56,101 nt of DNA, from IMG/VR virus record IMGVR_UViG_3300045988_126896. One strand, written 5' to 3'. This document shows, piece after piece, positions 1 to 56,101 of this stretch. A program made the position numbers and the translations under genes. The notes beneath the pieces are model-generated. The model ran no database searches. It saw only the letters and a program-made list of their open reading frames with translations, and had not been told where the DNA came from. This DNA is from a virus. Numbering within the stretch: the first letter of the stretch is position 1; every line of letters begins with the position of its first letter.

Positions 1-99
1 CTTTTTTTGTTTGGGAAGCACGAAGACGATTATTACTTTAAGAATCAGACAGCTACCCAGATTACAAAGAGCATGGCGAAAAAAATAGGGTTAAAGGTA
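1..99. repeat. Terminal overlap, identical to 56003-56101 (circular closure or terminal redundancy)
   Basis: Direct reading: the string ctttttttgtttgggaagcacgaagacg...ggttaaaggta occurs at both window ends. Confidence 0.95.
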
Positions 100-4101: not shown

Positions 4102-4673
4102 GTGAAGAAGTAAAAAGAGAGGTACAGACCTGGGACCCGGTAGAGTGGTTAGATCGTATTATTAACGGTGAACAGACTTATACGTTACAAGAAGTACTGG
4201 GAAACAGCGGACACTACAAACTGGTTCCAGACAACGTAGAAGTTATCCAGAAGGGTACACCACTTTCACAGTCCAGGCTTAACCGTATGACTGACGGTAT
4301 CAGCTTTTCACATAACGTTATCGGTGCTATTGCTACCGAAGCGCTTAGACAGGCCGGACTTGCACACAAAAACAGACAAGTAGATTTTGAAAAACGTTTC
4401 TTACAGGGTGAAGCCACTATTACCGGAACGCCTGGGGGATATTTTTCTACTACTTATCCGTTCGTCCTGGTACCTATTCCGGCCGGTACAGAACATATAC
4501 AAACAAATACGCCACACTATGACGTTACTTTGTGTGTGACAGCTGCCGACGACATTGGAAAGGTAAACCTTGAAGTTTACGATAAAGCAAGTAACGGCTT
4601 TAAAGTAAGAAACTTAGGTAGTGCGAAGTCTGTAAGCTTTACCTGGACGATCATTAACACAAATATTCAGTAA
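4098..4673 (+). CDS. Hypothetical tail-fibre-module protein
   Basis: Overlapping start, 191 aa, located in the fibre module. Confidence 0.55.
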   Translation: MSEEVKREVQTWDPVEWLDRIINGEQTYTLQEVLGNSGHYKLVPDNVEVIQKGTPLSQSRLNRMTDGISFSHNVIGAIATEALRQAGLAHKNRQVDFEKRFLQGEATITGTPGGYFSTTYPFVLVPIPAGTEHIQTNTPHYDVTLCVTAADDIGKVNLEVYDKASNGFKVRNLGSAKSVSFTWTIINTNIQ

Positions 4674-4686
4674 GGGGGTAATAACA

Positions 4687-5061
4687 ATGAGAATACAGCA
4701 CGTAAACAGTGGTACTAAGGCGAAGTGGAGAACAAAAGGAACCATTTTACAGCTTACCGTACCGGGCGTAGAGCCTATCGAAATCGACCTTAACGAAGAA
4801 TTACAGGACGTAGCTGTAACCGTAGACGTAAGCCTTAATTCCGGTTTTACAGCACTGGAAAAGGGCGTAGGTAACTGGTATGTAGCGTCCGTAAAAATCC
4901 CGGCAAGGGAATACGATTATCAGCCGACAGGCGAAACAGACGACGAAGGCTACGACATTCTGGAAGAAGTAGCTTTAGACGTAAACATGAGGGACGTTAC
5001 TTTATGCCTGTGGGGTATCCCAGATATGACCCAGGCACAGAAAGAAAGCGAGGTAAAATAA
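4687..5061 (+). CDS. Hypothetical tail-fibre-module protein
   Basis: RBS aaggggg lies upstream. The stop abuts the start of the DGR target gene. Confidence 0.5.
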   Translation: MRIQHVNSGTKAKWRTKGTILQLTVPGVEPIEIDLNEELQDVAVTVDVSLNSGFTALEKGVGNWYVASVKIPAREYDYQPTGETDDEGYDILEEVALDVNMRDVTLCLWGIPDMTQAQKESEVK

Positions 5062-6126
5062 ATGGCTTTTACATTTTCAATTAAGGACACATACAGACAG
5101 GCTGTAGAAGCTGCCAGCGGTGGAAAGCAGACAGTATTATACGACGACAAAGGGTACCCGTCTATTATGAATATTATCCCGAAGCTGTCCTATAAGGACG
5201 TCGGTTTATCTGACAGCACAAAAGCACTTCCGGCGTTCATGGTAGACGACGCCGAAAAGCCGGAAATCTTCGTAGGTACCTTTATGGCTATGGTACATGA
5301 CGGAAGGGCGTGTAGCCTTCCTGGACAGGTGCCGAAAGTTTATACCAACATGGACCAGGCTATCGCTTATTGTCGTGCAAAAGGTCCGGGCTGGCATTGT
5401 ATGACAAACGCGGAATATGCCGCTATTGCCCTTTGGTGCAAGGCAAATGGTTACTACCCACGCGGAAATAATAACTACGGCAGCGATCACGGTTACCCGC
5501 ATGAAAAATGCAGACCTGGAACTGTAGGAAGCGACGGACGTATTAACCTGGGGCTTACTGGTAGTGGTCCGAACAGCTGGACACATGACGGAACCCCGAA
5601 CGGTATCTACGGTCTGAACGGCGATGGCTGGGAATGGGCTATCGGACTTCGTACAAATAATGGAGAAATCCATATTTTGACCGGAAACAATGCAGCAAAG
5701 AACACAGCAGACCTTACAGCTGGAAGCGCGGAGTGGAAAGCTATTTTACCAGACGGTACCCTGGTGGCACCTGGTACAGCTGGTACGCTTAAGATCGACA
5801 TTGTAAGCGGTGTTCCGAAGATCAGCACTACAGTAAAAACGACGACAAGTAGCGACCAGTGGCCGTCTACGCCGTTCAAAGATTTAGATGTAGAATCCGG
5901 TATCACAATACCGGATATTTTGAAGGCGTTAGCCGTCTTCCCTTCGGATAACAGCGATCATGGCGGGGATAGATTTTACGCAAAGAATGACGGGGAAAAA
6001 TGCTTCTTCCGCGGTGGGCTTTGGAGCAGCGCGTCATACGCTGGCGTTTTCTATCTGTATGGCAACTACCCGCGTTCTCGTTCCAATGACGGCATTGGCT
6101 TTCGCCCCGCTTACATTCTTTTGTAA
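5062..6126 (+). CDS. DGR variable (target) protein, FGE-sulfatase/C-type-lectin-fold type; probable receptor-binding tail-fibre protein
   Basis: The VR occupies its last approx 40 codons. Central motifs (GPGWHCMTNAEYAAIALWC, NGDGWEWA) resemble the SUMF1/FGE-like fold. Located at the end of the tail-fibre module. Confidence 0.9.
   Translation: MAFTFSIKDTYRQAVEAASGGKQTVLYDDKGYPSIMNIIPKLSYKDVGLSDSTKALPAFMVDDAEKPEIFVGTFMAMVHDGRACSLPGQVPKVYTNMDQAIAYCRAKGPGWHCMTNAEYAAIALWCKANGYYPRGNNNYGSDHGYPHEKCRPGTVGSDGRINLGLTGSGPNSWTHDGTPNGIYGLNGDGWEWAIGLRTNNGEIHILTGNNAAKNTADLTAGSAEWKAILPDGTLVAPGTAGTLKIDIVSGVPKISTTVKTTTSSDQWPSTPFKDLDVESGITIPDILKALAVFPSDNSDHGGDRFYAKNDGEKCFFRGGLWSSASYAGVFYLYGNYPRSRSNDGIGFRPAYILL
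6002..6114 (+). repeat. DGR variable region (VR)
   Basis: 113 nt align without gaps to 6558-6670 (offset 556). 99 of 113 positions are identical, and 13 of the 14 mismatches sit at TR adenines. Confidence 0.95.
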
Positions 6127-6178
6127 ATCTGTAGTGGCCGCGACAGCGGACACCGCCAACTAAAGGAGTGACAAAACT

Positions 6179-6529
6179 ATGGCGGATACCAGAGAACTTT
6201 ATATTAAAACGAAAGTAGAAGATATGATAGTTTACGGGAATATTTGCTTAAAACAGTTTCCGAAACATGAACGATACGCCCTTGCTTCGGAAATAAGGCT
6301 TTGTATGTACCGTATTCTGGGAATCGTCATAGAAACTAATCATAAGCACTACAAGAAAACCACGCTTACCGAACTGGACATAGAAGTAGACAAACTACGG
6401 TCTTATCTTCGTCTATCAGTGAACCCAGAACTTAAGTATTTATCTGTAGATAAGTACGGAAACTGGGCGGCCATGGTAGACGAAATCGGCCGTATGGTCG
6501 GCGGCTGGATACAGTCGGTAAGCAAATAA
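6179..6529 (+). CDS. avd: Accessory variability determinant (Avd-like four-helix-bundle protein)
   Basis: 116 aa, basic and predicted helical. Lies between the target gene and the TR. RBS aaaggag is upstream. Confidence 0.85.
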   Translation: MADTRELYIKTKVEDMIVYGNICLKQFPKHERYALASEIRLCMYRILGIVIETNHKHYKKTTLTELDIEVDKLRSYLRLSVNPELKYLSVDKYGNWAAMVDEIGRMVGGWIQSVSK

Positions 6530-6557
6530 ATACTTAGGGTACATGACATTAAATGTG

Positions 6558-6670
6558 GCTTCTTCCGCGGTGGGAATTGGAACAACACGTCTAACGCTGG
6601 CGTTTTCTATCTGAATGGCAACAACCCGCGTTCTAATTCCAATGACAACATTGGCTTTCGCCCCGCTTAA
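6558..6670 (+). repeat. DGR template region (TR), non-coding
   Basis: Invariant copy of the VR. In the VR-equivalent frame it carries ten AAY codons and ends in TAA. No ORF covers it. Confidence 0.95.
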
Positions 6671-6835
6671 CCTGGAAATCCTCTAGTCTACAGCTTAAGG
6701 GCTGTAACACGCGACCAGGTAAAGGGTTATGTATCCTTGCTGTAAAGCAGAAAATAAAGGTTAGGAACGGACGTACTCTAGTAGCTTCGGCGAACGGTGC
6801 GACACGCTGAAAAAGAAAAACGGAAGGTAGTTACA

Positions 6836-7930
6836 ATGGCAAAACGCGTAGGCAACATATATCTTCCGAACTGTAACTATACCTGTCTGTATAACGCCTA
6901 TCGGAAAGCCGCAAAGGGTAAGCGGTACCGTGGTGACGTTTTACAATTTACTGATAACCTTGAAGGAAATCTGTTAGCCCTGTTAGACGACTTAAAGAAC
7001 CACACCTATACTGTAGGCGCGTACCGGGAATTTTACGTTTATGAGCCAAAGAAAAGGCTTATTATGGCGCTTCCCTTTCGTGATCGCGTCGCCCAGTGGT
7101 GGGTGTATTCTTTGCTTTACCCTATCTTTGATAAAACTTTCATAGAAGACAGTTACGCTTGTCGGCGCGGTAAAGGTCAAAAGGCCGCCGCTGATCGTCT
7201 GCAAGATATGATAAAGCAGACGGAAGTTTTAGGCGGTAAGTGGTATTACCTTAAGCTGGACATAGCGAAATACTTCTACAGAATTTACCATGATAAGCTT
7301 ATGGAAATTCTGGAAAGAAAAATTAAAGACCCGGATATGCTGGAATTGTTAAACGTTATCGTAAAAGGTGACGGTACAAATGCTTTCGGTTTGTCTATAT
7401 GTGACAATGTAGAAGACGCCGAACGCCTTACTGATCGTGGTATGCCTATCGGTAATCTGACAAGCCAGCTTTTAGCAAATGTCTATTTGAATGAGTTAGA
7501 CCAGTTCTGTAAAAAGGTACTGGGAACAAAATTCTATATACGCTATATGGACGATGTAATAATACTTTCACAGAGTAAGGAAGAATTACACGAAATCAAA
7601 GAACGTATAAGTAAGTTCCTGGACGAAGAACTACAGCTTACTTTAAACAAAAAGACTTGCATACGTCCGGTATCTATGGGTATCCAGTTCGTAGGCTTAC
7701 ATATCTGGTCTACACACAGAACTGTAAGAAAGTCTACTTCTTTACGTATTAAACGCCGACTTAAGGCAGCTGCAAAACAGTACGTAGCAGGGAACCTTAC
7801 TTACGAAAGATATAACAGCACGTTACAGTCTTATATGGGTATGATGAAGCATAACGACTGTTACCGCTTTAAAATGCAGCTGTTAGAAGACGTAGAAACG
7901 ATAATAAATGAAAGTGGGGTAGCAGCATGA
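6836..7930 (+). CDS. DGR reverse transcriptase
   Basis: YMDD box (YIRYMDDVIIL). DGR-type motif IGNLTSQLLANVYL (LGxxxSQ class). ATG at 6836 follows RBS ggaagg. The TR lies 166 nt upstream. Confidence 0.95.
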   Translation: MAKRVGNIYLPNCNYTCLYNAYRKAAKGKRYRGDVLQFTDNLEGNLLALLDDLKNHTYTVGAYREFYVYEPKKRLIMALPFRDRVAQWWVYSLLYPIFDKTFIEDSYACRRGKGQKAAADRLQDMIKQTEVLGGKWYYLKLDIAKYFYRIYHDKLMEILERKIKDPDMLELLNVIVKGDGTNAFGLSICDNVEDAERLTDRGMPIGNLTSQLLANVYLNELDQFCKKVLGTKFYIRYMDDVIILSQSKEELHEIKERISKFLDEELQLTLNKKTCIRPVSMGIQFVGLHIWSTHRTVRKSTSLRIKRRLKAAAKQYVAGNLTYERYNSTLQSYMGMMKHNDCYRFKMQLLEDVETIINESGVAA

Positions 7931-8310
7931 CCGGAGATACAACAATGTCTTTTGCTTTACTTATTGCCCTTGTTACGATTGCCTGTACGGTATATAACAC
8001 ACTTACGGGTAAAAAATCGCAGAGCCAGAAAGACGTAGACCAACAGATTAAGGAAGCCACCCAGAAGGTGACAGCTGATACGAAGATCAGTCTTAAGCTG
8101 GACCAGATAGGGTACGACGTAAAATCAATTAAAGAAGACATTAACACGACCAAAAAAGAGGTCCGGGAACTTGATAAAAAAGTAGCCCTTTTGGACGCTT
8201 CGATACGTTCCGCGCATAAACGTATGGATAGCGCCGGTATCGGTAGGGCGGACCTTATAGAACATATTGAGCATGAGAAAATAGAAAGGAATGAACATCA
8301 TGGCGAATAA
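7927..8310 (+). CDS. Membrane-anchored coiled-coil protein in the lysis cassette (XhlA-like role possible)
   Basis: One N-terminal TM segment (FALLIALVTIACTVY) followed by a charged coiled coil. ATGA overlap with the RT stop. Directly precedes the holin. Confidence 0.55.
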   Translation: MTGDTTMSFALLIALVTIACTVYNTLTGKKSQSQKDVDQQIKEATQKVTADTKISLKLDQIGYDVKSIKEDINTTKKEVRELDKKVALLDASIRSAHKRMDSAGIGRADLIEHIEHEKIERNEHHGE

Positions 8311-8614
8311 AAAAGTACAGCAGCTTACAGCTGTGGAGAATAAGCAGAACGACAAGAGTAAAATTAACTGGAAGGTCAGAGTAAAAAATAAGGCGTTCTG
8401 GTTAGCACTTATCCCGGCGGTGCTTCTTCTTATCCAGGTTATCGCTTCGGTCTTCGGTTACACCCTTGACCTGGGCGATCTGGGTAATAAATTGCTTTCC
8501 GTCGTGGAAGCCCTGTTTATGGTTCTTTCTATCCTTGGTATCGTGGTAGACCCAACTACCGACGGTGTAGGGGATAGCAAACAGGCACTTACTTACACAG
8601 AACCGAAAAAATAA
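8291..8614 (+). CDS. Holin, phi-LC3 (Phage_holin_1) type
   Basis: Motifs WKVRVKNKAFWLALIPAVLLLIQ and GIVVDPTTDGVGDS are typical of this holin family. The true start may be ATG 8300. Confidence 0.85.
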   Translation: MNIMANKKVQQLTAVENKQNDKSKINWKVRVKNKAFWLALIPAVLLLIQVIASVFGYTLDLGDLGNKLLSVVEALFMVLSILGIVVDPTTDGVGDSKQALTYTEPKK

Positions 8615-10439: not shown

Positions 10440-10724
10440 ATGCAGAATAATAAGACATTCTATAAAAGATGTTCCACAAGGGAACAGGCTGTAGACTTCA
10501 CGGAAAAATCCCAGGGAACTATACAGGAAGATGGCTGTACTGTAGCCTTTGACGCGTCCTACAGCATATCTAAGGCGCTGTTTAATGTGAAGTCTGATAA
10601 GTACCGCGTATATATCAGAATCCGCCTTGCAAATGGAAACCCACTTACATATATCGTAGCTGCTAAACGTTCAAAGGACGCCTACGATATGGCAAAGAAC
10701 AGAGTGAAAGAAGGGTGGTTTTAA
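10440..10724 (+). CDS. Hypothetical protein upstream of the integrase
   Basis: RBS aaaggaagg; 94 aa; stop overlaps the integrase start. Confidence 0.6.
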   Translation: MQNNKTFYKRCSTREQAVDFTEKSQGTIQEDGCTVAFDASYSISKALFNVKSDKYRVYIRIRLANGNPLTYIVAAKRSKDAYDMAKNRVKEGWF

Positions 10725-12169
10725 TGCCAGGAAACACAAAGAAGCACAGACGCGGAAATGGGGAAGGTAGCGTATATCAGCGTAAAGACGGAACCTGGGC
10801 GGCGGTTCTTACTGTCGGCGTTAAACAAGATGGTAAGCCAGATCGAAAGTTTTTATATGGAAAGACCAGGAAAGAAGTAGCGGATAAGCTTAGAGAAGCG
10901 CAGAACAAGCTTGACGCTGGTGTTATCCCTGGGGGCGATAATGTCCTTTTTAGTACGTGGGTAATAAACTGGTTAGAGATTGTTATAAAACCCGGTATTA
11001 AAGAACGAACCTACGTAAATTACAAGGCGTCTATAGAAAAGCATATTATACCAGGTATCGGGCGATATAAGCTTAAGGACATTACAGACGACGTAATACA
11101 AAAATATCTGAACGACCAACAGGAACACGGAAACCTTAAACTTGAAATTAACGACGACACGGGAGAAGCGGCACCGTCCCACGGACCGGTAGCGGCGTCT
11201 TCTCTTATTCAGCAACGACGACTTATTATAGCTGCTTTAGAATACGCTGTAGACAAGGGACGTATAAATAGAAACCCTGGAAAAAAGACAAGGCGGCCAA
11301 AAAGTAAACCGAAGACAAATAATATACTGACAGACGAAGAAATGGAAACACTGGGTATTAAAGGAACGAAGTACCGTTATTATCCGGCGTATATGCTGAC
11401 ACTTACTACAGCTTGCAGACGGGGCGAAATACTTGGCCTTGACTGGCAGCACGTAGATATAGGGATACCCTGGACAACAGTAGACCGGTACTTTCCCTGG
11501 GGCGATATAAAGAAGCTTCCTAAGTGGGACACGAAAGCCTTAAAAACACTTCTGGAAGATCATAATATTACATTTGGGGACGGATACTTACGGCTTGTGT
11601 ATCAGATGGTAGACGACAACGGTACCCCGTTTAGGGACGAACTTAAAACTGATCTGTCCAGGCGTTCCCTTATGATTACCGAAGAAATGGTTCTGCTTCT
11701 GATTTTCTGGCGGCTGATACAGAATACAGAAAAAAGGAAAGCCACAGAAAGAGGGATAGAGTACAACCCGGACAATCTGGTATTTTGTACCAGGAAAGGG
11801 ACTTACATTTACCCTAGAAACTTTACAAAAATGTGGAGTGAAAACCTTCGATCTATGGGTATCGACCATAAGCGTTTTCACGATCTACGCCATACGGTGG
11901 CTACGGTTATGCTGGAAGACGGCGAAGCTATGAATACAGTACAGGAACAGCTGGGACACTACGACGCTGGCTTTACAGCTTCCAGATATGGACACGTTAC
12001 CGCTAAAATGAGAAATAGTGCAGCTGTAAAGCTTGGGGAACGTCTGGAAAAGGTAAGGAACCCAGAAGCAGAAGACGAAGAAGACGCCAACAGCGTAAAG
12101 AAGGAAGATACCGTTATTCCTTTCCAGGAAGGACGAAAGCTTAAGTCTGCCGCTTGTAAAATTAAATAG
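10724..12169 (+). CDS. int: Tyrosine integrase with N-terminal arm-type DNA-binding domain
   Basis: N-terminal GNGEGSVYQRKDGTWAA. Catalytic motifs ACRRGEILGLDW, HDLRHT and GHxxxxxxxxRYGHV. Confidence 0.9.
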   Translation: MPGNTKKHRRGNGEGSVYQRKDGTWAAVLTVGVKQDGKPDRKFLYGKTRKEVADKLREAQNKLDAGVIPGGDNVLFSTWVINWLEIVIKPGIKERTYVNYKASIEKHIIPGIGRYKLKDITDDVIQKYLNDQQEHGNLKLEINDDTGEAAPSHGPVAASSLIQQRRLIIAALEYAVDKGRINRNPGKKTRRPKSKPKTNNILTDEEMETLGIKGTKYRYYPAYMLTLTTACRRGEILGLDWQHVDIGIPWTTVDRYFPWGDIKKLPKWDTKALKTLLEDHNITFGDGYLRLVYQMVDDNGTPFRDELKTDLSRRSLMITEEMVLLLIFWRLIQNTEKRKATERGIEYNPDNLVFCTRKGTYIYPRNFTKMWSENLRSMGIDHKRFHDLRHTVATVMLEDGEAMNTVQEQLGHYDAGFTASRYGHVTAKMRNSAAVKLGERLEKVRNPEAEDEEDANSVKKEDTVIPFQEGRKLKSAACKIK

Positions 12170-26852: not shown

Positions 26853-29800
26853 ATGGCAAAACAAAATAAAGAATATGTGTACGTGGATTGTTACCAGTGC
26901 GACGAAAACGGAAAAAGCAGCCCGTGGAAGCGTAAACACTTGGACGACGTACCGAAGTGGCAACACGAAGAAGCAAAGGACTTTAATTGTTTTGCCACGG
27001 TCCAGAAATACGCAAATGAGAAGAAGACAGAGGGGGAAGACTTCTTAGCCCCCCTGTACTTCGACCTTGACTATAGTGAAAATCCGGCAGTAGCCCAGGA
27101 AGAAGCTATTAAGCTGGTGGAGTTCTTCACCGGGGAACTTGACATACAGGAACAGGACTTACATATTTACTTTTCCGGGTCTAAGGGCTTCCATATTCTG
27201 GTAGACGAAAGAGCATTAGGCGTAGAGCCTAGAAAAGACTTACAGAGAGTATATAAGCATATTGCCGGATACCTTCGTTACAGGTTAGGAGAAGTACAGG
27301 AACAGGAAGACGAAAACGGACGACCAGTAGAGTATACAGAACCTTTAAAAGCTGTAGACCTTGTGGTTTATACCGTAAAGCGTATGTTACGTCTTCCATA
27401 TTCCAGACACCAGAAGACCGGGCTTTACAAGATCGAACTTACCTTACAGCAGCTTAAGGAACTGACATTAGACGAAATTAAGGAAAGAGCGCGTACCGGC
27501 CAGCCTATCCAGAGAGAAGAAAAGACGGTACGTAAAAGACCAAAAGCTGGGATATTCTACGCGGACAAGTTACACGAATACGAAGAAGCCGCCGCTACGG
27601 TATCTGATAAGCGAAATAAAACAGAATATGTTTTCGTTAAAGATAAACCGCCGGTATGTGTAGAAGACATTCTTAACAATGGCTGGAAGAAAGACGGTGA
27701 TCGTAATAACGCCACTGTGCAACTTTGCTGTTACTTTAAGGCAGCCGGATACAAAAAAGAAGAAGCTACAAGTATCCTGGAAGACTGGGTAGTAAAGTTT
27801 ACCAGCGCGGACAGTCGGTACAGTATCCAGCAACGTAAGGCGAACACCAGAAACGTTATAGAAAGTGTTTACGGAAGTGAAAAGGATTACCAGTTTGGGT
27901 GTGCTTTTATACGATCACTTCACGGCGAAAAGAAGAAAGGCGACAACGATTACGACAGGGTACCATGTGCCGGTGATATGTGTCCTTGTATTAAGGGTAA
28001 CACCGACGTAGCCGAAGAAGCTATAAACCTTCCGCTTGCGAAAACTTCCGACGCTTCCCTTACAGGTAAGCTGATTACGACCCGCGTAATGGTGGCCGGT
28101 AAGAAGCATACGCCTTATGTTGTCCCGAAAAAAGTAGAGTATTCATGCTGGGGACAGGAAAAATGTAAAAAGTATGGCTGTCCGCTGCTGAACATTCCTA
28201 CAGCTACGGCATATAAGGAACTGAACGCCCATAACCGTGAACTTATTCAAATGACAGAAACGGGCGACGACAATATAAAGGGAATCCTTCGGGAGATCAG
28301 CGGGATACCGTCTTGCGGAAAGTACGATACTTCCATTGTGGAAACGATCAACGTAGACGAACTTCTGGTTATTCCTATGGCAGAAGAAGACGGCGTTAAA
28401 GAAGACGATACCGGAAGCTATGTACTTCGTAAGATTTACGCTATCGGTGGTATGAAGATTGAAACGAATAAATACTATGAGATCAGCGGTTATATGTACC
28501 CACACCCGAAGAACCAGGAAAGTACCATTCTGGTAACGAACGCGACACCTTTACAGGACGTCGTAGAAAGCTTTTCCTTGACCGAAGAAGTCCGGGAAGA
28601 ACTGGACAGCCTTAGACCGGAAAGTATGACAGTGGAAAACATTGTATCGAAGCTGGGAACCATACTTAATGATCTGACTTATAACGTAACGCATATCGTA
28701 GAGCGCGACGAAGTTCTTTTAGGTCTGCTGCTGGTTTACCACAGTATTTTACGTTTCCGTGTTCCATGGGATACCGACCCTATAAGGGGGTGGGTAGAAC
28801 TTAAGATAGTCGGCGATACTGGTACCGGTAAGTCTGCTTTAGTCGAAAAAATGATGAAATATATCGGACTTGGTAACCGTGTAAATGCAGAGAGTACAAG
28901 CCGTACCGGTCTTACTTACAAAATGGAACAGGGTAACCGCGGAAGCTGGTATATCGTCTGGGGTGCCTGGCCGTTGGCAGATAAAGAGCTTATATGGGTA
29001 GACGAAGATACCGGTATAGAAAAGGACGAATACGGGGAAATGACCCTTGCAAGATCAGACGGTAAGCTGGAAGTTAAGAGAGCCGTTACAGCTGAAACGC
29101 CTTGTAGGGTAAGGGCTATTCTTTCTGGTAACGCGCCGAAAGGTAAACGTCTTTCCGATTACGCCCAGGGTGCCGAAAGCTTAAAGGACGTCTTTAACAA
29201 TGAGGATATACGACGCTTCGACTTCGCTATATTTATGAGATCGACCGACGTAGACCCGGAAAAGTATAACCGGTCGCTTCCGTCATTTCCGCGAACCATG
29301 AGCGACGACGCCTTAAAAAATAATGTGTTATTCGCGTGGAGTAGAACACCGGAACAGGTTGTATTTTTACCCGATACTGTAGACGCCATTCTGGAAACGG
29401 CTACGAAGCTATCTAAGGTATATGGAAACGCTACAGATATTCCGCTGGTATCGCCTTCCGATCAACGTAACAAGGTGGCACGTTTGGCCGTGGCCCTTGC
29501 TTCACTTACACACAGCGTAGACGAAAGTGGGGAACGAATTACCGTTTACCCGGCACACGTAAATTTTATTTATGATTATCTGGTACAGCTGTATAACGCC
29601 CCTGGTTGTGGCCTTAATTACTATGCACGACTGGCAGTATCAGAAGAAATAGTAGGGGATAAATTCGACAAGATTACAAACGAGTTAAGAAAGCTGGATA
29701 CCTTAAAGGGTGCCAGTAAGTATAACGAGTTCATAGACCTTTTCGCCAGACAGAAATACTTACGACTTGGCGACGTAGAAGCTATGTTAAGCATTGAGAA

Positions 29801-29951
29801 GGAAGAAGCAAAGGCTATTATTAACCAGTGTGTCCGCCTTCGTATGCTGACTATGACAAGCGGCGGATACAGAAAAACGCCGCGGTTTAACTCTTATATA
29901 TCAAAATGTTTTGAAATGGGATTATTCGATCACATGGAAAACGACATTTAA
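26853..29951 (+). CDS. Primase-helicase: N-terminal archaeo-eukaryotic primase (prim-pol) domain plus C-terminal P-loop helicase
   Basis: LYFDLDY and SGSKGFHILV (AEP motifs). Walker A GDTGTGKS. Walker B LIWVDED. Confidence 0.85.
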   Translation: MAKQNKEYVYVDCYQCDENGKSSPWKRKHLDDVPKWQHEEAKDFNCFATVQKYANEKKTEGEDFLAPLYFDLDYSENPAVAQEEAIKLVEFFTGELDIQEQDLHIYFSGSKGFHILVDERALGVEPRKDLQRVYKHIAGYLRYRLGEVQEQEDENGRPVEYTEPLKAVDLVVYTVKRMLRLPYSRHQKTGLYKIELTLQQLKELTLDEIKERARTGQPIQREEKTVRKRPKAGIFYADKLHEYEEAAATVSDKRNKTEYVFVKDKPPVCVEDILNNGWKKDGDRNNATVQLCCYFKAAGYKKEEATSILEDWVVKFTSADSRYSIQQRKANTRNVIESVYGSEKDYQFGCAFIRSLHGEKKKGDNDYDRVPCAGDMCPCIKGNTDVAEEAINLPLAKTSDASLTGKLITTRVMVAGKKHTPYVVPKKVEYSCWGQEKCKKYGCPLLNIPTATAYKELNAHNRELIQMTETGDDNIKGILREISGIPSCGKYDTSIVETINVDELLVIPMAEEDGVKEDDTGSYVLRKIYAIGGMKIETNKYYEISGYMYPHPKNQESTILVTNATPLQDVVESFSLTEEVREELDSLRPESMTVENIVSKLGTILNDLTYNVTHIVERDEVLLGLLLVYHSILRFRVPWDTDPIRGWVELKIVGDTGTGKSALVEKMMKYIGLGNRVNAESTSRTGLTYKMEQGNRGSWYIVWGAWPLADKELIWVDEDTGIEKDEYGEMTLARSDGKLEVKRAVTAETPCRVRAILSGNAPKGKRLSDYAQGAESLKDVFNNEDIRRFDFAIFMRSTDVDPEKYNRSLPSFPRTMSDDALKNNVLFAWSRTPEQVVFLPDTVDAILETATKLSKVYGNATDIPLVSPSDQRNKVARLAVALASLTHSVDESGERITVYPAHVNFIYDYLVQLYNAPGCGLNYYARLAVSEEIVGDKFDKITNELRKLDTLKGASKYNEFIDLFARQKYLRLGDVEAMLSIEKEEAKAIINQCVRLRMLTMTSGGYRKTPRFNSYISKCFEMGLFDHMENDI

Positions 29952-29967
29952 AGAAGGGGGTTCTATA

Positions 29968-32490
29968 TTGAATTTAAGTAATATGTTCCCAGCTTCCGGC
30001 GGTCTTGCAGCGCAGATTAAAAAGCCAGTCGCTGCGGCAGTAGCAAAACCTACAGACAATAAAGCTGTAGGTTCTTCCCTGGCGGACTGTATGCAGACAA
30101 GAAAACGTCCGGGAGAATGGGCGATCAAATGGCCGAAACTTCGTAAGCAAGGTTTTAAAGACTACAGACCGCTTCTTACCATACAGGAAGTTATTGATTA
30201 CTGTAACCGTTGTGAGGAAACCGGATTAGGTGGTTTCGACTACGAAACAAGTGGAGATAAAGACCACAGGATACCGCCGACAGACGAAGACGGTAATACA
30301 GTAACAGGAAAAGCCTTAGACAGCTGGACGCGTGACGTCAACCTTGACCCGTGGAAAGCGGAAGTGTGCGCTATGTCTTTATCGGCAGCGTGTGACGAAG
30401 CGAGGGCTATCTTTATTGACAATCCGGGGGCTAATCAGTTTGAGCCTGGTTTATCCAGAAGCGAAGCCAGAAAACGACTTTTTGATACCTTAGAACAGCA
30501 TTTCTTTACTAATCATAAGATCGTAAAGATTGCCGTAAATATGAACTTTGAAACAAAATTCACGGCGAAATACGGAAAATATATTCTTATGCCATGTGCT
30601 GACCCGTTCATAGCATGGATAAGGCTGTCACAGCTGCTATTACCAAACAAGATAAAAAATCCGAAACGCCCTTACGTTGGTAAAGGTCTTAAGCCTATGA
30701 CGAAGGAAGTCTTCGGCGTACAGATGTCAGAATTTACTTCTGTCCTGGAACGTAACCAGGCGTTATTTTTCGACCAGGTACCAAACGACGAACACGACGC
30801 CTTAAGCTACTGCTGTGAGGATAGCGACTACGCCGTACAGCATTACCTTTACTGGGACGAAGTAGCGAAACAGATAAGTAATGATAACGAAGTGTACCCG
30901 ACCTATTCCGACTGGTTAAAAAATATCGAAATGCCTTTTACAAGGGTTACCGGAATTATGGAATACTGGGGTATGAAATGGGACAGCGACATAGCCCAGG
31001 TTAAAAGGGAAGAAGCAAAGAACGCGATCGAGATAGCCGCCCAGACTATGAAGGACCTGGCCGCAAGCGTCGGCATAAAAGACCTTAATGTAGGTGTTGG
31101 CGGTAAAACGAAAGACGTTAAATCTTTTGTATTTGATACGCTTAAGCTTCCGGCGGCTGCCTGGTCTGACAAAACAAAAGACCCTAGCCTGGACAGTAAC
31201 GCCCTTATGGATATGATCTTTATGTTAGAAAACAAGCTGGAAGACCCAGACGAAGAAAAGTACCTGGAAACACCTTTACCGGAAGAATGGGAAATGGTAG
31301 ACCCGGACTTATCTTATCAAGATCAGCGTCTTTTATGGCCGCGCGAATATGCTACAGCAGAAGTTAAGCGTATCAGAATCGCGCGTAGGGAAGAACACCC
31401 ATATAAAGACATCGGCGTTAAATTTTTAAAGAGTATGCAAACCATACAGAAGTACGCTACCTTGTTATCCTCTCACGTAGAAGGTCGTGAAAAATACGTA
31501 AATCCTGTTACCGGAAGAATCCACGCAAAGTATGAACCATGGACAGAAACGGCCCGCCTTGCGTCCAACAGTCCGAACGGTCAGAACGTGCCGCGCCCGG
31601 ATAATGACGAACTGGGGGTACGAAACTTCTATAAGGCAGCACCCGGTAAAGTATTCCTTCTGGAAGACGAAAGCGGCTTTGAACTTCGTTTAACTGCCTG
31701 GAAGTCCGGGTGTGAAGTTATGCGTAAGGCTTTCAGAGATCACGAAGACTTACACAGAAAAACAGCGGCTACTATGACGGGTAAACCGGAAGCAGAGGTT
31801 ACGAAGCATGAACGTAGTGGAGCGAAAGCCGGAAACTTCGGTTCTGTTTACGGTGGTACAGAACACGCCTTACAGAAAACCTTTAAAAAAATGGGGCTTC
31901 GTAAGAGCCTTCCAGAGTGTAAGAAGATCGTAGACGCCGTTATGAAGACTTACCCAGGTATCCCACGTATGCAAGTAAACGCCAAAGTAAAAGCTAGGGA
32001 AACGGGATACGCGGAAACCATTTACGGCTATAAGCGTCTGCTTCCGGCGATTAACAGCAGTAACCGTTACACAAGGTCAGAGGACGAACGACGGGCAGCG
32101 AATACACCGGTACAGGGTTCCGCCGCCGATATTATGAAACGCGCCCAGAATACCGTATACGAAAAATGTGGTATGGATACAGCAAGCCATAACGGTATAG
32201 CTGTAGAACCGTGGGACGGCTACGCTACAGAAACAAAAGAACTGTTAAGCTGTAAGCCTTTCATGTTACATGGACATACCGATATGGTAGCCCAGATACA
32301 TGATGAAATCATAGTAGAACTGGACGACGATACCACGCTTGTAGATACTTACGCAAAATGGCAGAAAGCCGTTATGGAAGTTCCGCCACTTAAGGACTTT
32401 CCTGTACAGCTGGAAGTAGAAGCCAGCGTAGCCTACAGCTGGGGTAATAAAATGAGCCTGGAAGACTGGGAGAAAGCGAGGGGGTTATAA
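29968..32490 (+). CDS. Family A DNA polymerase with 3'-5' exonuclease domain
   Basis: FDYETSG (Exo I), RRAANTPVQGSAADIMK (motif B), QIHDEIIVE (motif C). TTG at 29968 lies 8 nt after RBS gaaggggg; the alternative start is ATG 29983. Confidence 0.9.
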   Translation: MNLSNMFPASGGLAAQIKKPVAAAVAKPTDNKAVGSSLADCMQTRKRPGEWAIKWPKLRKQGFKDYRPLLTIQEVIDYCNRCEETGLGGFDYETSGDKDHRIPPTDEDGNTVTGKALDSWTRDVNLDPWKAEVCAMSLSAACDEARAIFIDNPGANQFEPGLSRSEARKRLFDTLEQHFFTNHKIVKIAVNMNFETKFTAKYGKYILMPCADPFIAWIRLSQLLLPNKIKNPKRPYVGKGLKPMTKEVFGVQMSEFTSVLERNQALFFDQVPNDEHDALSYCCEDSDYAVQHYLYWDEVAKQISNDNEVYPTYSDWLKNIEMPFTRVTGIMEYWGMKWDSDIAQVKREEAKNAIEIAAQTMKDLAASVGIKDLNVGVGGKTKDVKSFVFDTLKLPAAAWSDKTKDPSLDSNALMDMIFMLENKLEDPDEEKYLETPLPEEWEMVDPDLSYQDQRLLWPREYATAEVKRIRIARREEHPYKDIGVKFLKSMQTIQKYATLLSSHVEGREKYVNPVTGRIHAKYEPWTETARLASNSPNGQNVPRPDNDELGVRNFYKAAPGKVFLLEDESGFELRLTAWKSGCEVMRKAFRDHEDLHRKTAATMTGKPEAEVTKHERSGAKAGNFGSVYGGTEHALQKTFKKMGLRKSLPECKKIVDAVMKTYPGIPRMQVNAKVKARETGYAETIYGYKRLLPAINSSNRYTRSEDERRAANTPVQGSAADIMKRAQNTVYEKCGMDTASHNGIAVEPWDGYATETKELLSCKPFMLHGHTDMVAQIHDEIIVELDDDTTLVDTYAKWQKAVMEVPPLKDFPVQLEVEASVAYSWGNKMSLEDWEKARGL

Positions 32491-38793: not shown

Positions 38794-38988
38794 ATGGCAG
38801 AAGAGAATAAAAGCTGTAGGGGTTGCGTCTGTTTGACTTGCCAGTACAGCGAACAGAACGGGGACTTTAACCGGTGTCCGTTTAAGTCGTGTCGCTTATG
38901 TACAGATACAGTACATCATATCCGTAGCATATGCGATAAAGGCGTACAGCTGCCTAAGAAAGCAGATTACGCGGACTTCGTGCTATGA
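38794..38988 (+). CDS. Cys-rich small protein
   Basis: Ten Cys in 64 aa (CRGCVCLTCQ...CPFKSCRLC). Stop overlaps the terL start. Confidence 0.5.
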   Translation: MAEENKSCRGCVCLTCQYSEQNGDFNRCPFKSCRLCTDTVHHIRSICDKGVQLPKKADYADFVL

Positions 38989-40691
38989 CATACGAATATC
39001 AGACAGAATTTACTTACGTGGCAGACACGGACCCCTTGACCGGCGCCCCAGTAATGACGGCGATACCCCAGACCGTCCGGGCAGCGAAACAAGGGATACC
39101 ATACAACGTACTTAGTAACTTCGGTGATCTGTTTAAGAGGGAGAACCTACGGGAAGCGTGGCGGCTTCTTCGTAAAAATGACCCTTTCGACTACCAGATA
39201 CAGGTAGCCGACGCTATTCTTTATAGCTGCTTAAATGGGTTGGGCTGGTACTTCGTGGTACAGATCACACGACAGGCTGGTAAGAATGAGATTAGCGCCT
39301 TCTTACAACACTATTTACTGCTGTATGGCTGGTACTTCGGTGTACCTGTATCGGGCGTAAAATTCGCCCCGGTATACAAGCCACAGATACAAGCGTCTAT
39401 GGACCGTCTGGAAGGCGCCCCAACGCTGGACAGTGGCGGGCTTGCCGGTAGCGTGATAACGTCCGGTCAAGCGAAGGTGGACGGCCAGCCTTGCAAGTAC
39501 AGTAAATCAGATGGCTATAAATTCCATATCGGACCGCCCCGCGATAGTAATAAATGGGCGTTCCTGTCCATTAACCCTACAGCTAACGTTGCGTCCCAGA
39601 CAGCCTATACACTACTGGAAGGCGACGAAAGCCAGGACATAGACGCCGATAAGTGGGAGCGTGACGCCCAGCCTATGGGTTCGTTTAACAATGCTACTAC
39701 GGTGCTGTGGGGTGTAGCCTGGACAAAGGACAGCTTTATCTATCGTGGCGAACTGATGGCCCACGATATGGAAGATCGCTTAGAAAAGGAACTGGGGTAC
39801 CGGCCGAAGTTGGTATTTAAGATAGACGCCTACGCGGTTATCGCTTCCGGTAATACGAACTACAAGAAAGCGTTTGATAACCAGGTAGCCCGTCTGGGAA
39901 TGGACCACATAGCCATACAGACACAGTACCTTCTTAAAGCTGTAGACGCTATTGGTCGTTTCTTTTCCGCGGAAGGCGTAGCCCGTATGTATTCCGGCGG
40001 TTTTGAAATGCAAGTAGAACCAGTTAAGGGACATAAGTACATATGGGCGTGTGACGTAGCCGGACAGGAGGAAGAAACCACGGACGTAGAAGCGTCTGTA
40101 GGTATTCATAAGCGCGACGCCCTTACGTTTATCGTCGGCGACCTTTTACGGGACGGTACAGTAGTTCCGATCTGCTTGTATCAGTGGGTCGGAAAACAGC
40201 ACAGCAAAGTAAGGGATATGTTACCGAAAATCATACGTTACTGGGGTGCTATTGGTGGGGTATGTGACGGTACCGGAATCGGTGAACCGTTGGCGTACCA
40301 CCTTAAAGAGTTATTCGACAGGAATAACGACGGACTGGTAGAAGCCTATAAGTTTAAGGCAGCCGGTGACGAAAGTAAATCTAAGCTGGGTTATCTGGCT
40401 TACGATTTTAACCATAACGATTTAATCAAAGTTCCGAAGGCACCGGAAGACCCGGACCAGCTGGAACTATGGAAGGAACTACGGTGGCAAGTGGAACACC
40501 TTACAAGGGAAGCCAAACGTCAGCAAACAATAAATTTTTATGTCCCAGCGAACGCCGAACCACGTAAACCGGGACACGTTCCACACGACGACTTAGTAAT
40601 GGCCCTATTCTTGCTTATGAGGGCCGCACGAAACATAGACCCGAACACTGGCAAGGCTACAGCCTTTGACCGTGAAAAGTCGGGAGTATAG
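38985..40691 (+). CDS. terL: Terminase large subunit
   Basis: 568 aa, directly upstream of the portal gene. Walker-A-like QITRQAGKNE, acidic LLEGDESQD, and a C-terminal nuclease-like region. Confidence 0.75.
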   Translation: MTYEYQTEFTYVADTDPLTGAPVMTAIPQTVRAAKQGIPYNVLSNFGDLFKRENLREAWRLLRKNDPFDYQIQVADAILYSCLNGLGWYFVVQITRQAGKNEISAFLQHYLLLYGWYFGVPVSGVKFAPVYKPQIQASMDRLEGAPTLDSGGLAGSVITSGQAKVDGQPCKYSKSDGYKFHIGPPRDSNKWAFLSINPTANVASQTAYTLLEGDESQDIDADKWERDAQPMGSFNNATTVLWGVAWTKDSFIYRGELMAHDMEDRLEKELGYRPKLVFKIDAYAVIASGNTNYKKAFDNQVARLGMDHIAIQTQYLLKAVDAIGRFFSAEGVARMYSGGFEMQVEPVKGHKYIWACDVAGQEEETTDVEASVGIHKRDALTFIVGDLLRDGTVVPICLYQWVGKQHSKVRDMLPKIIRYWGAIGGVCDGTGIGEPLAYHLKELFDRNNDGLVEAYKFKAAGDESKSKLGYLAYDFNHNDLIKVPKAPEDPDQLELWKELRWQVEHLTREAKRQQTINFYVPANAEPRKPGHVPHDDLVMALFLLMRAARNIDPNTGKATAFDREKSGV

Positions 40692-55750: not shown

Positions 55751-56101
55751 ATGGGAAAACTACAGCTTAAAATAGATGGAAACGACTTTACGGGTGTCCT
55801 TGCTGATAACCCAGTTATTAAAGATCAGCTTAACGCTTGCTGCCGTACCTTGACTTTTAAGCTGTCTTTATATGGGAACCGCTTGGACCTCTTAGCCCAT
55901 AAAGTAGAACTTTTCTATAAAGGGAAACGCTGGTTTATCGGTGAGATAAAAAAACAGAAAGAGGAACACGACGGCACCAACAGTATAACCGTATACGACC
56001 CGCTTTTTTTGTTTGGGAAGCACGAAGACGATTATTACTTTAAGAATCAGACAGCTACCCAGATTACAAAGAGCATGGCGAAAAAAATAGGGTTAAAGGT
56101 A
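55751..56101 (+). CDS. XkdQ-like tail/baseplate protein, 5' part (continues at base 1 of the circle)
   Basis: ATG at 55751. Open to the window end and in phase with 1-741. Confidence 0.7.
   Translation, partial: MGKLQLKIDGNDFTGVLADNPVIKDQLNACCRTLTFKLSLYGNRLDLLAHKVELFYKGKRWFIGEIKKQKEEHDGTNSITVYDPLFLFGKHEDDYYFKNQTATQITKSMAKKIGLKV
56003..56101. repeat. Terminal overlap, identical to 1-99
   Basis: Direct comparison of the two ends. Confidence 0.95.

Follow-up and report, generated by a model that had tools for sequence, protein, structure and literature searches.

IMG/VR virus record IMGVR_UViG_3300045988_126896 is a stretch of DNA of 56,101 nucleotides (analysed here over its whole length, and hereafter called the window) that carries, between positions 5062 and 7930, a gene for a variable (target) protein that ends in a variable repeat (VR), an accessory variability determinant gene (avd), a non-coding template repeat (TR), a structured spacer, and a reverse transcriptase (RT) gene (Table 1). 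Taken together, these parts almost certainly constitute a complete, functional diversity-generating retroelement (DGR) of the canonical target-avd-TR-RT type, carried by a temperate, contractile-tailed phage of ~56 kb from Blautia-like Lachnospiraceae. A complete DGR with adenine-specific mutagenic retrohoming into the VR had been claimed for this locus in an earlier sequence-only reading, made without database searches, and the claim is supported both by the anatomy of the locus and by population data from related contigs.

Table 1 Features of the DGR and of its presumed target site in the window. Positions count from the first base of the window; IMH, initiation of mutagenic homing.
Feature	Position	Strand	Description and basis
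Target (variable-protein) gene	5062..6126	+	354 aa; single-domain C-type-lectin/FGE-type fold; homologue of TaqVP
VR	6002..6113	+	Codes for residues 314-351 of 354, at the target C-terminus
Invariant VR 3' end, IMH-like	6095..6113	+	TTGGCTTTCGCCCCGCTTA; identical to TR 6651-6669
Single (A/T)TCTG heptad-motif copy	6127..6131	+	Invariant in close relatives
GC-rich inverted repeat, predicted hairpin/cruciform with GRNA loop	6134..6153	+	GTGGCCGC-GACA-GCGGACAC; 20 nt after VR; folding prediction
avd	6179..6529	+	116 aa, pI 8.8; NCBIfam, Pfam and PHROG matches
TR, non-coding	6558..6669	+	25 adenines, ten AAY codons
Structured spacer RNA, putative counterpart of BPP-1 'Sp'	6666..6806	+	Sub-threshold match to Rfam RT-14, and covariation
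DGR RT gene	6836..7930	+	364 aa; closest to Brt of Bordetella phage BPP-1; Pfam RVT_1, 92 bits

The two repeats differ at template adenines

Direct comparison and a repeat finder both delimited an ungapped repeat of 112 nt in which VR and TR are identical at 99 of 112 positions, with 12 of the 13 mismatches at TR adenines and the remaining one at a TR thymine. Expressed by template base, mismatches fall on 12 of the 25 A positions and on 1 of the 87 others (one-sided Fisher test, p = 1.3e-8), which is the pattern that defines a DGR repeat pair, and it is on this bias that chance duplication was rejected as the source of the repeat. The sole non-A difference sets TR T6592 against VR A6036 and is synonymous (TCT to TCA, Ser). 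Read in the frame of the VR, the TR contains the ten AAY codons that the sequence-only reading had counted. That reading had also aligned 6002-6114 to 6558-6670 without gaps at 99 of 113 identical positions, which direct comparison reproduced, and the twelve internal adenine mismatches that it listed (TR positions 6575, 6576, 6582, 6585, 6587, 6593, 6614, 6623, 6635, 6636, 6647, and 6648) are all exact. Its tally was right for the adenine sites but not in total, as 113 minus 99 leaves 14 differences and not 13, T6592/A6036 having been overlooked; likewise, the mismatch that it placed at the 3' boundary (6670) does involve a TR adenine, but 6114/6670 is the first base pair past the homology and not part of the repeat.

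A pattern made from half of the TR matched only the VR and the TR within the window, with 0 matches expected from shuffled sequence, and no second VR or further copy of the repeat was found in the 56 kb. Beyond the last mutable adenine (the last variable column is TR A6650) lies the 19-nt segment 6095-6113, in which none of the VRs of 17 relatives differs from its own TR. By analogy with BPP-1 and TaqVP, this segment would function as an IMH.

VRs diversify in natural populations while TRs do not

In six IMG/VR relatives of 97-99% nucleotide identity, the VRs vary at 22 of the 25 TR-A columns, and the TRs are nearly invariant. The same picture emerges from a set in which the RT protein is 100% identical (the window and ten contigs): all 11 VRs are distinct (11/11), 24 of the 25 TR-A columns are polymorphic, with the terminal A of the invariant segment as the 25th, and outside the VR the target genes share 97-99% identity. 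Eleven distinct VRs alongside an identical RT imply that the VR diversifies faster than by ordinary divergence. Where a non-A column of the repeat is polymorphic among the VRs of these two groups, the change mirrors one in the contig's own TR, with the exceptions of window position 6036 and, in one contig (L009) whose homology begins a few bases later, of three columns at the repeat's 5' edge; within the identical-RT set, 6036 is the only unmirrored non-A difference. Since non-A variants of the TR are mirrored in the cognate VR, information flows from TR to VR, and unidirectional transfer with adenine mutagenesis is thus observed in natural populations. The adenine-restricted variation that had been proposed as a population check of the locus was therefore found, in that the differences among contigs are confined to TR-adenine sites.

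The consequences for the proteins are visible at a larger scale. Clusters at 90% protein identity contain 9721 distinct sequences of the target, 487 of Avd, and 2707 of the RT, and the exact sequences of the window occur on 3 contigs for the target and on at least 1000 contigs each for Avd and the RT. Across 15 members of the target cluster, the columns that are hypervariable coincide exactly with the 14 adenine-containing codons of the TR (residues 320, 322-324, 326, 331, 333, 335, 336, 340, and 342-345), and a single column holds as many as 10 different residues.

Judged from these contig sequences, the DGR is evidently active. An alternative is that it is a genuine DGR that is now inactive in this lineage, so that the VR/TR differences and the diversity between samples would be historical and the VR frozen; we regard this as very unlikely. 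The non-A difference at 6592 is what would be expected from point mutations accumulated after a last homing event, apparent RT-less derivatives occur (contig L019, described below), and the case for activity has been built on contigs and not on reads. However, all open reading frames (ORFs) of the element are intact and the catalytic motifs are in place, every VR is distinct despite identical RT proteins and target genes that are 97-99% identical outside the VR, and recent point changes in the TR have already reached the VR, all of which argue for continuing diversification.

Two contigs depart from the common arrangement. L019 (IMGVR_UViG_3300008705_000151, positions 600-670) is without the equivalent of window 6751-7768 (~1 kb, comprising most of the RT gene), with the TR and its flanks kept, and the deletion junction coincides with an imperfect 12-nt microhomology, GCTGTAAAGCAG / GCTGCAAAACAG (window 6739-6750 and 7769-7780). 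This contig starts at the position that matches window 6113, which places the target gene outside it, and either natural loss of the RT or an assembly artefact could account for it. In L067 (Logan SRR16279997), the copy in TR position (2723-2834) has normal TR flanks and ten substitutions, all at adenines. Because the TR copy itself carries adenine substitutions, a comparison of VR and TR in L067 looks non-A-specific; either homing of complementary DNA (cDNA) into the TR itself or an assembly chimera of VR and TR would explain the mutated TR.

Avd and the reverse transcriptase belong to DGR families

The 116-aa basic ORF that had been placed at the Avd position is indeed of that length and basic, and the accessory protein, which is present in most but not all DGRs, was identified here by family models that exceed their curated cutoffs, thereby answering the question of an Avd-family match to 6179-6529 that the sequence-only reading had raised. 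The NCBIfam equivalog model NF033474 (DivGenRetAVD) scored 111 bits where 80 are required and Pfam bAvd scored 93 bits where 40 are required, and PHROG 3206, annotated as 'Avd protein of DGR', was also matched. A sequence search of the PDB with Avd gave no match.

For the RT, both motifs named earlier were located, IGNLTSQ at 7448-7468 and YMDD at 7544-7555, but a start at GTG 6797 was not borne out. We assign the start to ATG 6836, because GGAAGG lies 8 nt upstream, the alignment to Brt runs from residue 3 of both proteins, and gene callers and NCBI give 364 aa. In the PDB, the RT comes closest to 8ub7_A (E = 2.3e-49), found by tblastn to be 100% identical to brt of Bordetella phage BPP-1; a literature search for PDB code 8UB7 found no paper. 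The next-best structures, group II and 'retron-type' RTs, reach 2e-21 or worse, leaving Brt ahead by 28 orders of magnitude in E-value, and no NCBIfam model for group II, retron, Drt, or Abi RTs (AbiA among them) reaches its cutoff with this protein. Thus, by similarity scores, the RT belongs to the DGR clade, with the motif 4 form [I/L]GxxxSQ, YxDD, and a greater similarity to Brt than to RTs of group II introns or retrons. Among RT relatives down to ~25% identity, most of those with enough flanking sequence retrieved adjoin an A-biased VR/TR pair of their own. Relative to Brt, the window RT has an insertion of ~20 residues, NAFGLSICDNVEDAERLTDR, at residues ~186-205 (window 7389-7450), just before IGNLTSQ.

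A clustering with group II or retron RTs, which the earlier reading had named as the outcome that would speak against a DGR, was accordingly not seen. That the RT instead belongs to a group II intron, a retron, or a defence system, with the repeat an unrelated duplication diverged by ordinary mutation or gene conversion, is hardly credible: the best NCBIfam model is group_II_RT_mat, many DRT and UG models appear in the PADLOC list, and NCBI and IMG use the names 'reverse transcriptase/maturase family' or 'retron-type', but the group II model (TIGR04416) scores 141.5 bits, far under its cutoff of 300, the retron, Drt, and AbiA models also fall far below theirs, Rfam finds no intron or retron RNA in the window, and the distance to Brt, the adenine bias, the presence of Avd, and the A-biased repeats beside most homologous RTs all oppose it. 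The PADLOC DRT and UG matches were set aside as generic RT-domain similarity.

The target is a C-type-lectin-fold protein

Almost end to end (residues 3-353), the target protein is homologous to PDB 5vf4_A (E = 1.7e-74), and it matches PHROG 2889 at E = 1e-125. Its fold was assigned through this PDB homology because Pfam and NCBIfam gave no significant family for it, the FGE-sulfatase match being faint (E = 0.29). The structure 5VF4 is that of TaqVP, the variable protein (C-type-lectin fold, CLec) of a Thermus aquaticus prophage DGR, whose VR is at the very C-terminus; the VR of the window likewise occupies the 3' end of a variable-protein ORF with a C-type-lectin fold. By analogy, the randomized codons would map to the ligand-binding face of a lectin fold like that of TaqVP, and the target is probably a receptor-binding protein. 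The 14 mutable codons consist of the ten AAY codons together with ACG, TAT, GAC, and ATT, from none of which a stop codon is attainable, giving a potential repertoire of about 1.5e14 proteins and 1.1e15 DNA sequences.

Candidate target-site elements follow the VR

Downstream of the VR, the hairpin at 6134-6153 combines a GC-rich stem of seven pairs with a 4-nt GACA loop, and so fits the consensus published for phage DGR target sites, namely GC-rich stems of 7-10 bp with a 5'-GRNA loop at 4-34 bp from the VR (Guo et al. 2011). In relatives, the stem is invariant, and only the N of the GRNA loop changes (GACA to GATA). Both cis elements of a DGR target site, an IMH-like end and a GRNA hairpin at 4-34 bp, are thereby present, and on the same analogy the hairpin is presumed to be a target-site recognition element.

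A second feature of this region became apparent from related DGRs. In ten non-redundant DGRs whose RTs are at least ~40% identical to that of the window (the window itself, L007, L008, L010, L011, L036, L037, L039, L040, and L041), the 60 nt after the VR contain 23 copies of the motif (A/T)TCTG versus 1.4 expected (p ~2e-20), and none follows the TRs of the same ten. Spacing between copies is a multiple of 7-8 nt, and all of them lie past the target stop codon, in the non-coding DNA that directly follows it. A scan of IMG/VR for triple heptads returned at least 120 sites; 8 among the matches listed (L098, L107, L114, L122, L153, L154, L161, and L176) lie -3 to +14 nt after an A-biased VR. The heptad array is strongly enriched at DGR targets without being exclusive to them, and it could act as a determinant of the recipient site, beside the hairpin or in its place.

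No description of a heptad repeat downstream of the VR was found in the DGR literature searched. The clade with RTs at least ~40% identical to that of the window spans Lachnospiraceae phages, Nitrospinota, Calditrichota, Gracilinema, and Woesearchaeota, and we suggest, tentatively and as a minority view among the readings that we would entertain, that it uses two cis elements undescribed in DGRs as far as our literature search reached: a heptad array that marks the VR, and the orphan Rfam motif RT-14 (see below) as a priming or spacer RNA next to the TR. The window may then hold a reduced version of the first element, made up of one heptad and the hairpin.

A structured spacer separates TR and RT

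In the interval from the TR to the RT gene, helices are predicted at 6671-6675/6715-6719, 6690-6694/6701-6705, and 6738-6741/6746-6749 (the last with a GTAA loop), among others. In a relaxed search, 6666-6806 aligned over the full length of the 144-nt Rfam model RF02921 (RT-14) at 35.7 bits (E = 0.002), sharing its helices as well as UAAGG, AAAGGG, UCCUU, UAGUAGC, and GCGAA. The Rfam gathering score is 48.1 bits, and by that rule the window spacer is not a member of the family. At the same place relative to the TR 3' end, two relatives have matches of their own, one above the threshold (L041, 2227-2366, 63.4 bits) and one below it (L036, 3439-3595, 38.5 bits). Although a non-member by the Rfam rule, the window spacer is probably homologous to RT-14 and works like it. 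As far as the available part of Weinberg et al. (2017) goes, only RT-10 among their 'RT motifs' is tied to the BPP-1 DGR, with a DGR link speculated for others.

The spacer also shows covariation, with a consensus fold of five related spacers that has 40 pairs, 14 of which show compensatory changes (for example, CCTGG/CCAGG to CCCGG/CCGGG and ACAGC/GCTGT to GTTTC/GAAAC), and a small hairpin that carries a GNRA tetraloop in most relatives. This closer set of five was needed, as MAFFT/alifold on ten distant spacers recovered only 3 pairs. The single-sequence fold of 6530-6840 was no better than that of shuffles (z = -0.45), Rfam at gathering thresholds gave nothing over the whole window, and a promoter scan found no convincing promoter for a TR RNA. 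Terminator-like matches inside the VR and TR were rejected as consensus noise.

Proposed mechanism

Retrohoming has been shown in BPP-1, and its transfer to the window DGR yields the following scheme. A complex of RT and Avd would bind an RNA that spans the 3' end of avd, the TR, and the structured spacer (6666-6806); the RT would copy the TR into cDNA, misincorporating specifically opposite template adenines; and the cDNA would replace the 3'-terminal VR (6002-6113) of the TaqVP-like C-type-lectin gene, guided by the invariant segment 6095-6113 and the GRNA-loop hairpin 6134-6153. The predicted outcome is the randomization of 14 target codons. The sequence parts, the adenine specificity, the direction of transfer from TR to VR, and the hypervariation are shown by the present data, whereas the chemistry of priming, what the hairpin, IMH, and spacer would do, and the binding of a receptor by the target are all modelled on work with BPP-1 and TaqVP.

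Several points weigh against this interpretation. The folding energy of the hairpin is unexceptional by itself (z = -1.19), and its stem, being invariant, offers no covariation; the match to RT-14 remains under the Rfam gathering score; and one mismatch between the repeats (6592) is not at an adenine, though it is synonymous. The receptor-binding role is presumed from the position of the target gene after baseplate genes and from analogy, and the activity of the DGR in this particular genome would follow from differences between samples.

Comparison with known DGRs

Among the closest known systems is the BPP-1 DGR (mtd-avd-TR-brt), with which the window shares the gene order target-avd-TR-RT, a homologous RT bearing IG(N/S)LTSQ and YMDD, an Avd of the bAvd family, a CLec-fold target with the VR at its 3' end, and a GC-rich, GRNA-loop hairpin downstream of the VR. 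Besides the insertion in the RT, the two differ in the target, which is monomeric and TaqVP-like in the window whereas BPP-1 Mtd is trimeric, and in the spacer RNA, which is RT-14-like in the window and RT-10 in BPP-1 (for the latter, according to the same part of Weinberg et al.). VR/TR homology in the window ends abruptly after GCTTA, whereas BPP-1 has a 35-bp IMH/IMH* pair with a few mismatches. The carriers differ as well, the window being a temperate myovirus-type phage of Firmicutes and BPP-1 a podovirus of Bordetella.

With the Thermus aquaticus prophage DGR, the window has in common a target homologous to TaqVP, a VR at the very C-terminus, and a prophage-borne target-avd-TR-RT layout, but it differs in host phylum and environment (human-gut Lachnospiraceae versus a thermophile), and its target is 31 aa shorter, with gaps where TaqVP has inserts. 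DGRs with TaqVP-like receptor-binding proteins have also been described in epsilon crAss-like gut phages, some relatives of which have lost the RT. These resemble the window phage in being gut phages that diversify a TaqVP-like CLec receptor-binding protein, and the RT loss there has a parallel here in L019; however, the window phage is temperate and sheath-bearing whereas crAss-like phages are podoviruses, and the crAssE-Sib receptor-binding protein has an extra N-terminal part without counterpart in the window target.

DGRs are commonly reported in gut prophages, and the element described here is real but of a known kind; RefSeq already contains the exact Avd and RT, which also occur on contigs of gut metagenomes numbering in the thousands. 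We consider it ordinary and already known because the exact Avd and RT are in NCBI, the Avd is named there as a DGR protein, and each is found on at least 1000 contigs. Its value lies in being a clean natural example from a very widespread prophage of human-gut Blautia/Lachnospiraceae, in which an identical RT accompanied by a different VR in every sample offers a convenient model of how a DGR drives the evolution of host range in gut Firmicutes. There appear to be lysogens in culture, examples being strains of Blautia glucerasea and Blautia producta (Avd accessions MCB6368145.1 and WP_343084277.1) and Ruminococcus sp. AF17-12 (accession WP_118608340.1). Additionally, the heptad arrays and the connection of RT-14 with the DGR spacer could refine the understanding of target-site and template-RNA recognition in DGRs outside the Bordetella model.

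Phage context and host

An exact direct repeat of 99 bp at the ends of the window (1-99 and 56003-56101) indicates a complete circular or circularly permuted genome of ~56.0 kb; its GC content is 45%, and all large ORFs are on the + strand. The position of the DGR between tail and lysis modules, as the sequence-only reading had placed it, agrees with the annotation, with baseplate and tail proteins encoded directly upstream and a small membrane/coiled-coil protein, a Phage_holin_1 holin, and a CW_7 endolysin directly downstream. Further phage genes encode a tyrosine integrase, DNA polymerase, primase-helicase, portal, tail sheath, and tape measure. The sheath, tape-measure, and baseplate genes uphold the description of the phage as contractile-tailed, and the integrase, together with copies inside contigs of 200-420 kb, does so for its description as temperate.

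Distant blastn of 4600-8400 against INPHARED (GenBank phages) returned two short matches to the RT domain only and no described close relative, and a tRNA scan found none. As for the host, the closest genome bins are Lachnospiraceae, and identical RT copies lie in contigs as long as 422 kb, which is consistent with an integrated prophage of Blautia-like Lachnospiraceae. In NCBI, the exact Avd sequence occurs in Blautia glucerasea and is named DGR protein Avd in Blautia, a near-identical Avd occurs in Blautia producta, and the exact RT occurs in Ruminococcus sp. AF17-12.

Elsewhere in the window, a 568-aa ORF (38985-40691) just upstream of the portal gene has the position expected of the large terminase and no PHROG match at E <= 1e-5. 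The regions 10715-12169 and 26853-32490 encode the tyrosine integrase (Phage_integrase), the primase-helicase (1032 aa), and a family-A-like DNA polymerase (859 aa).

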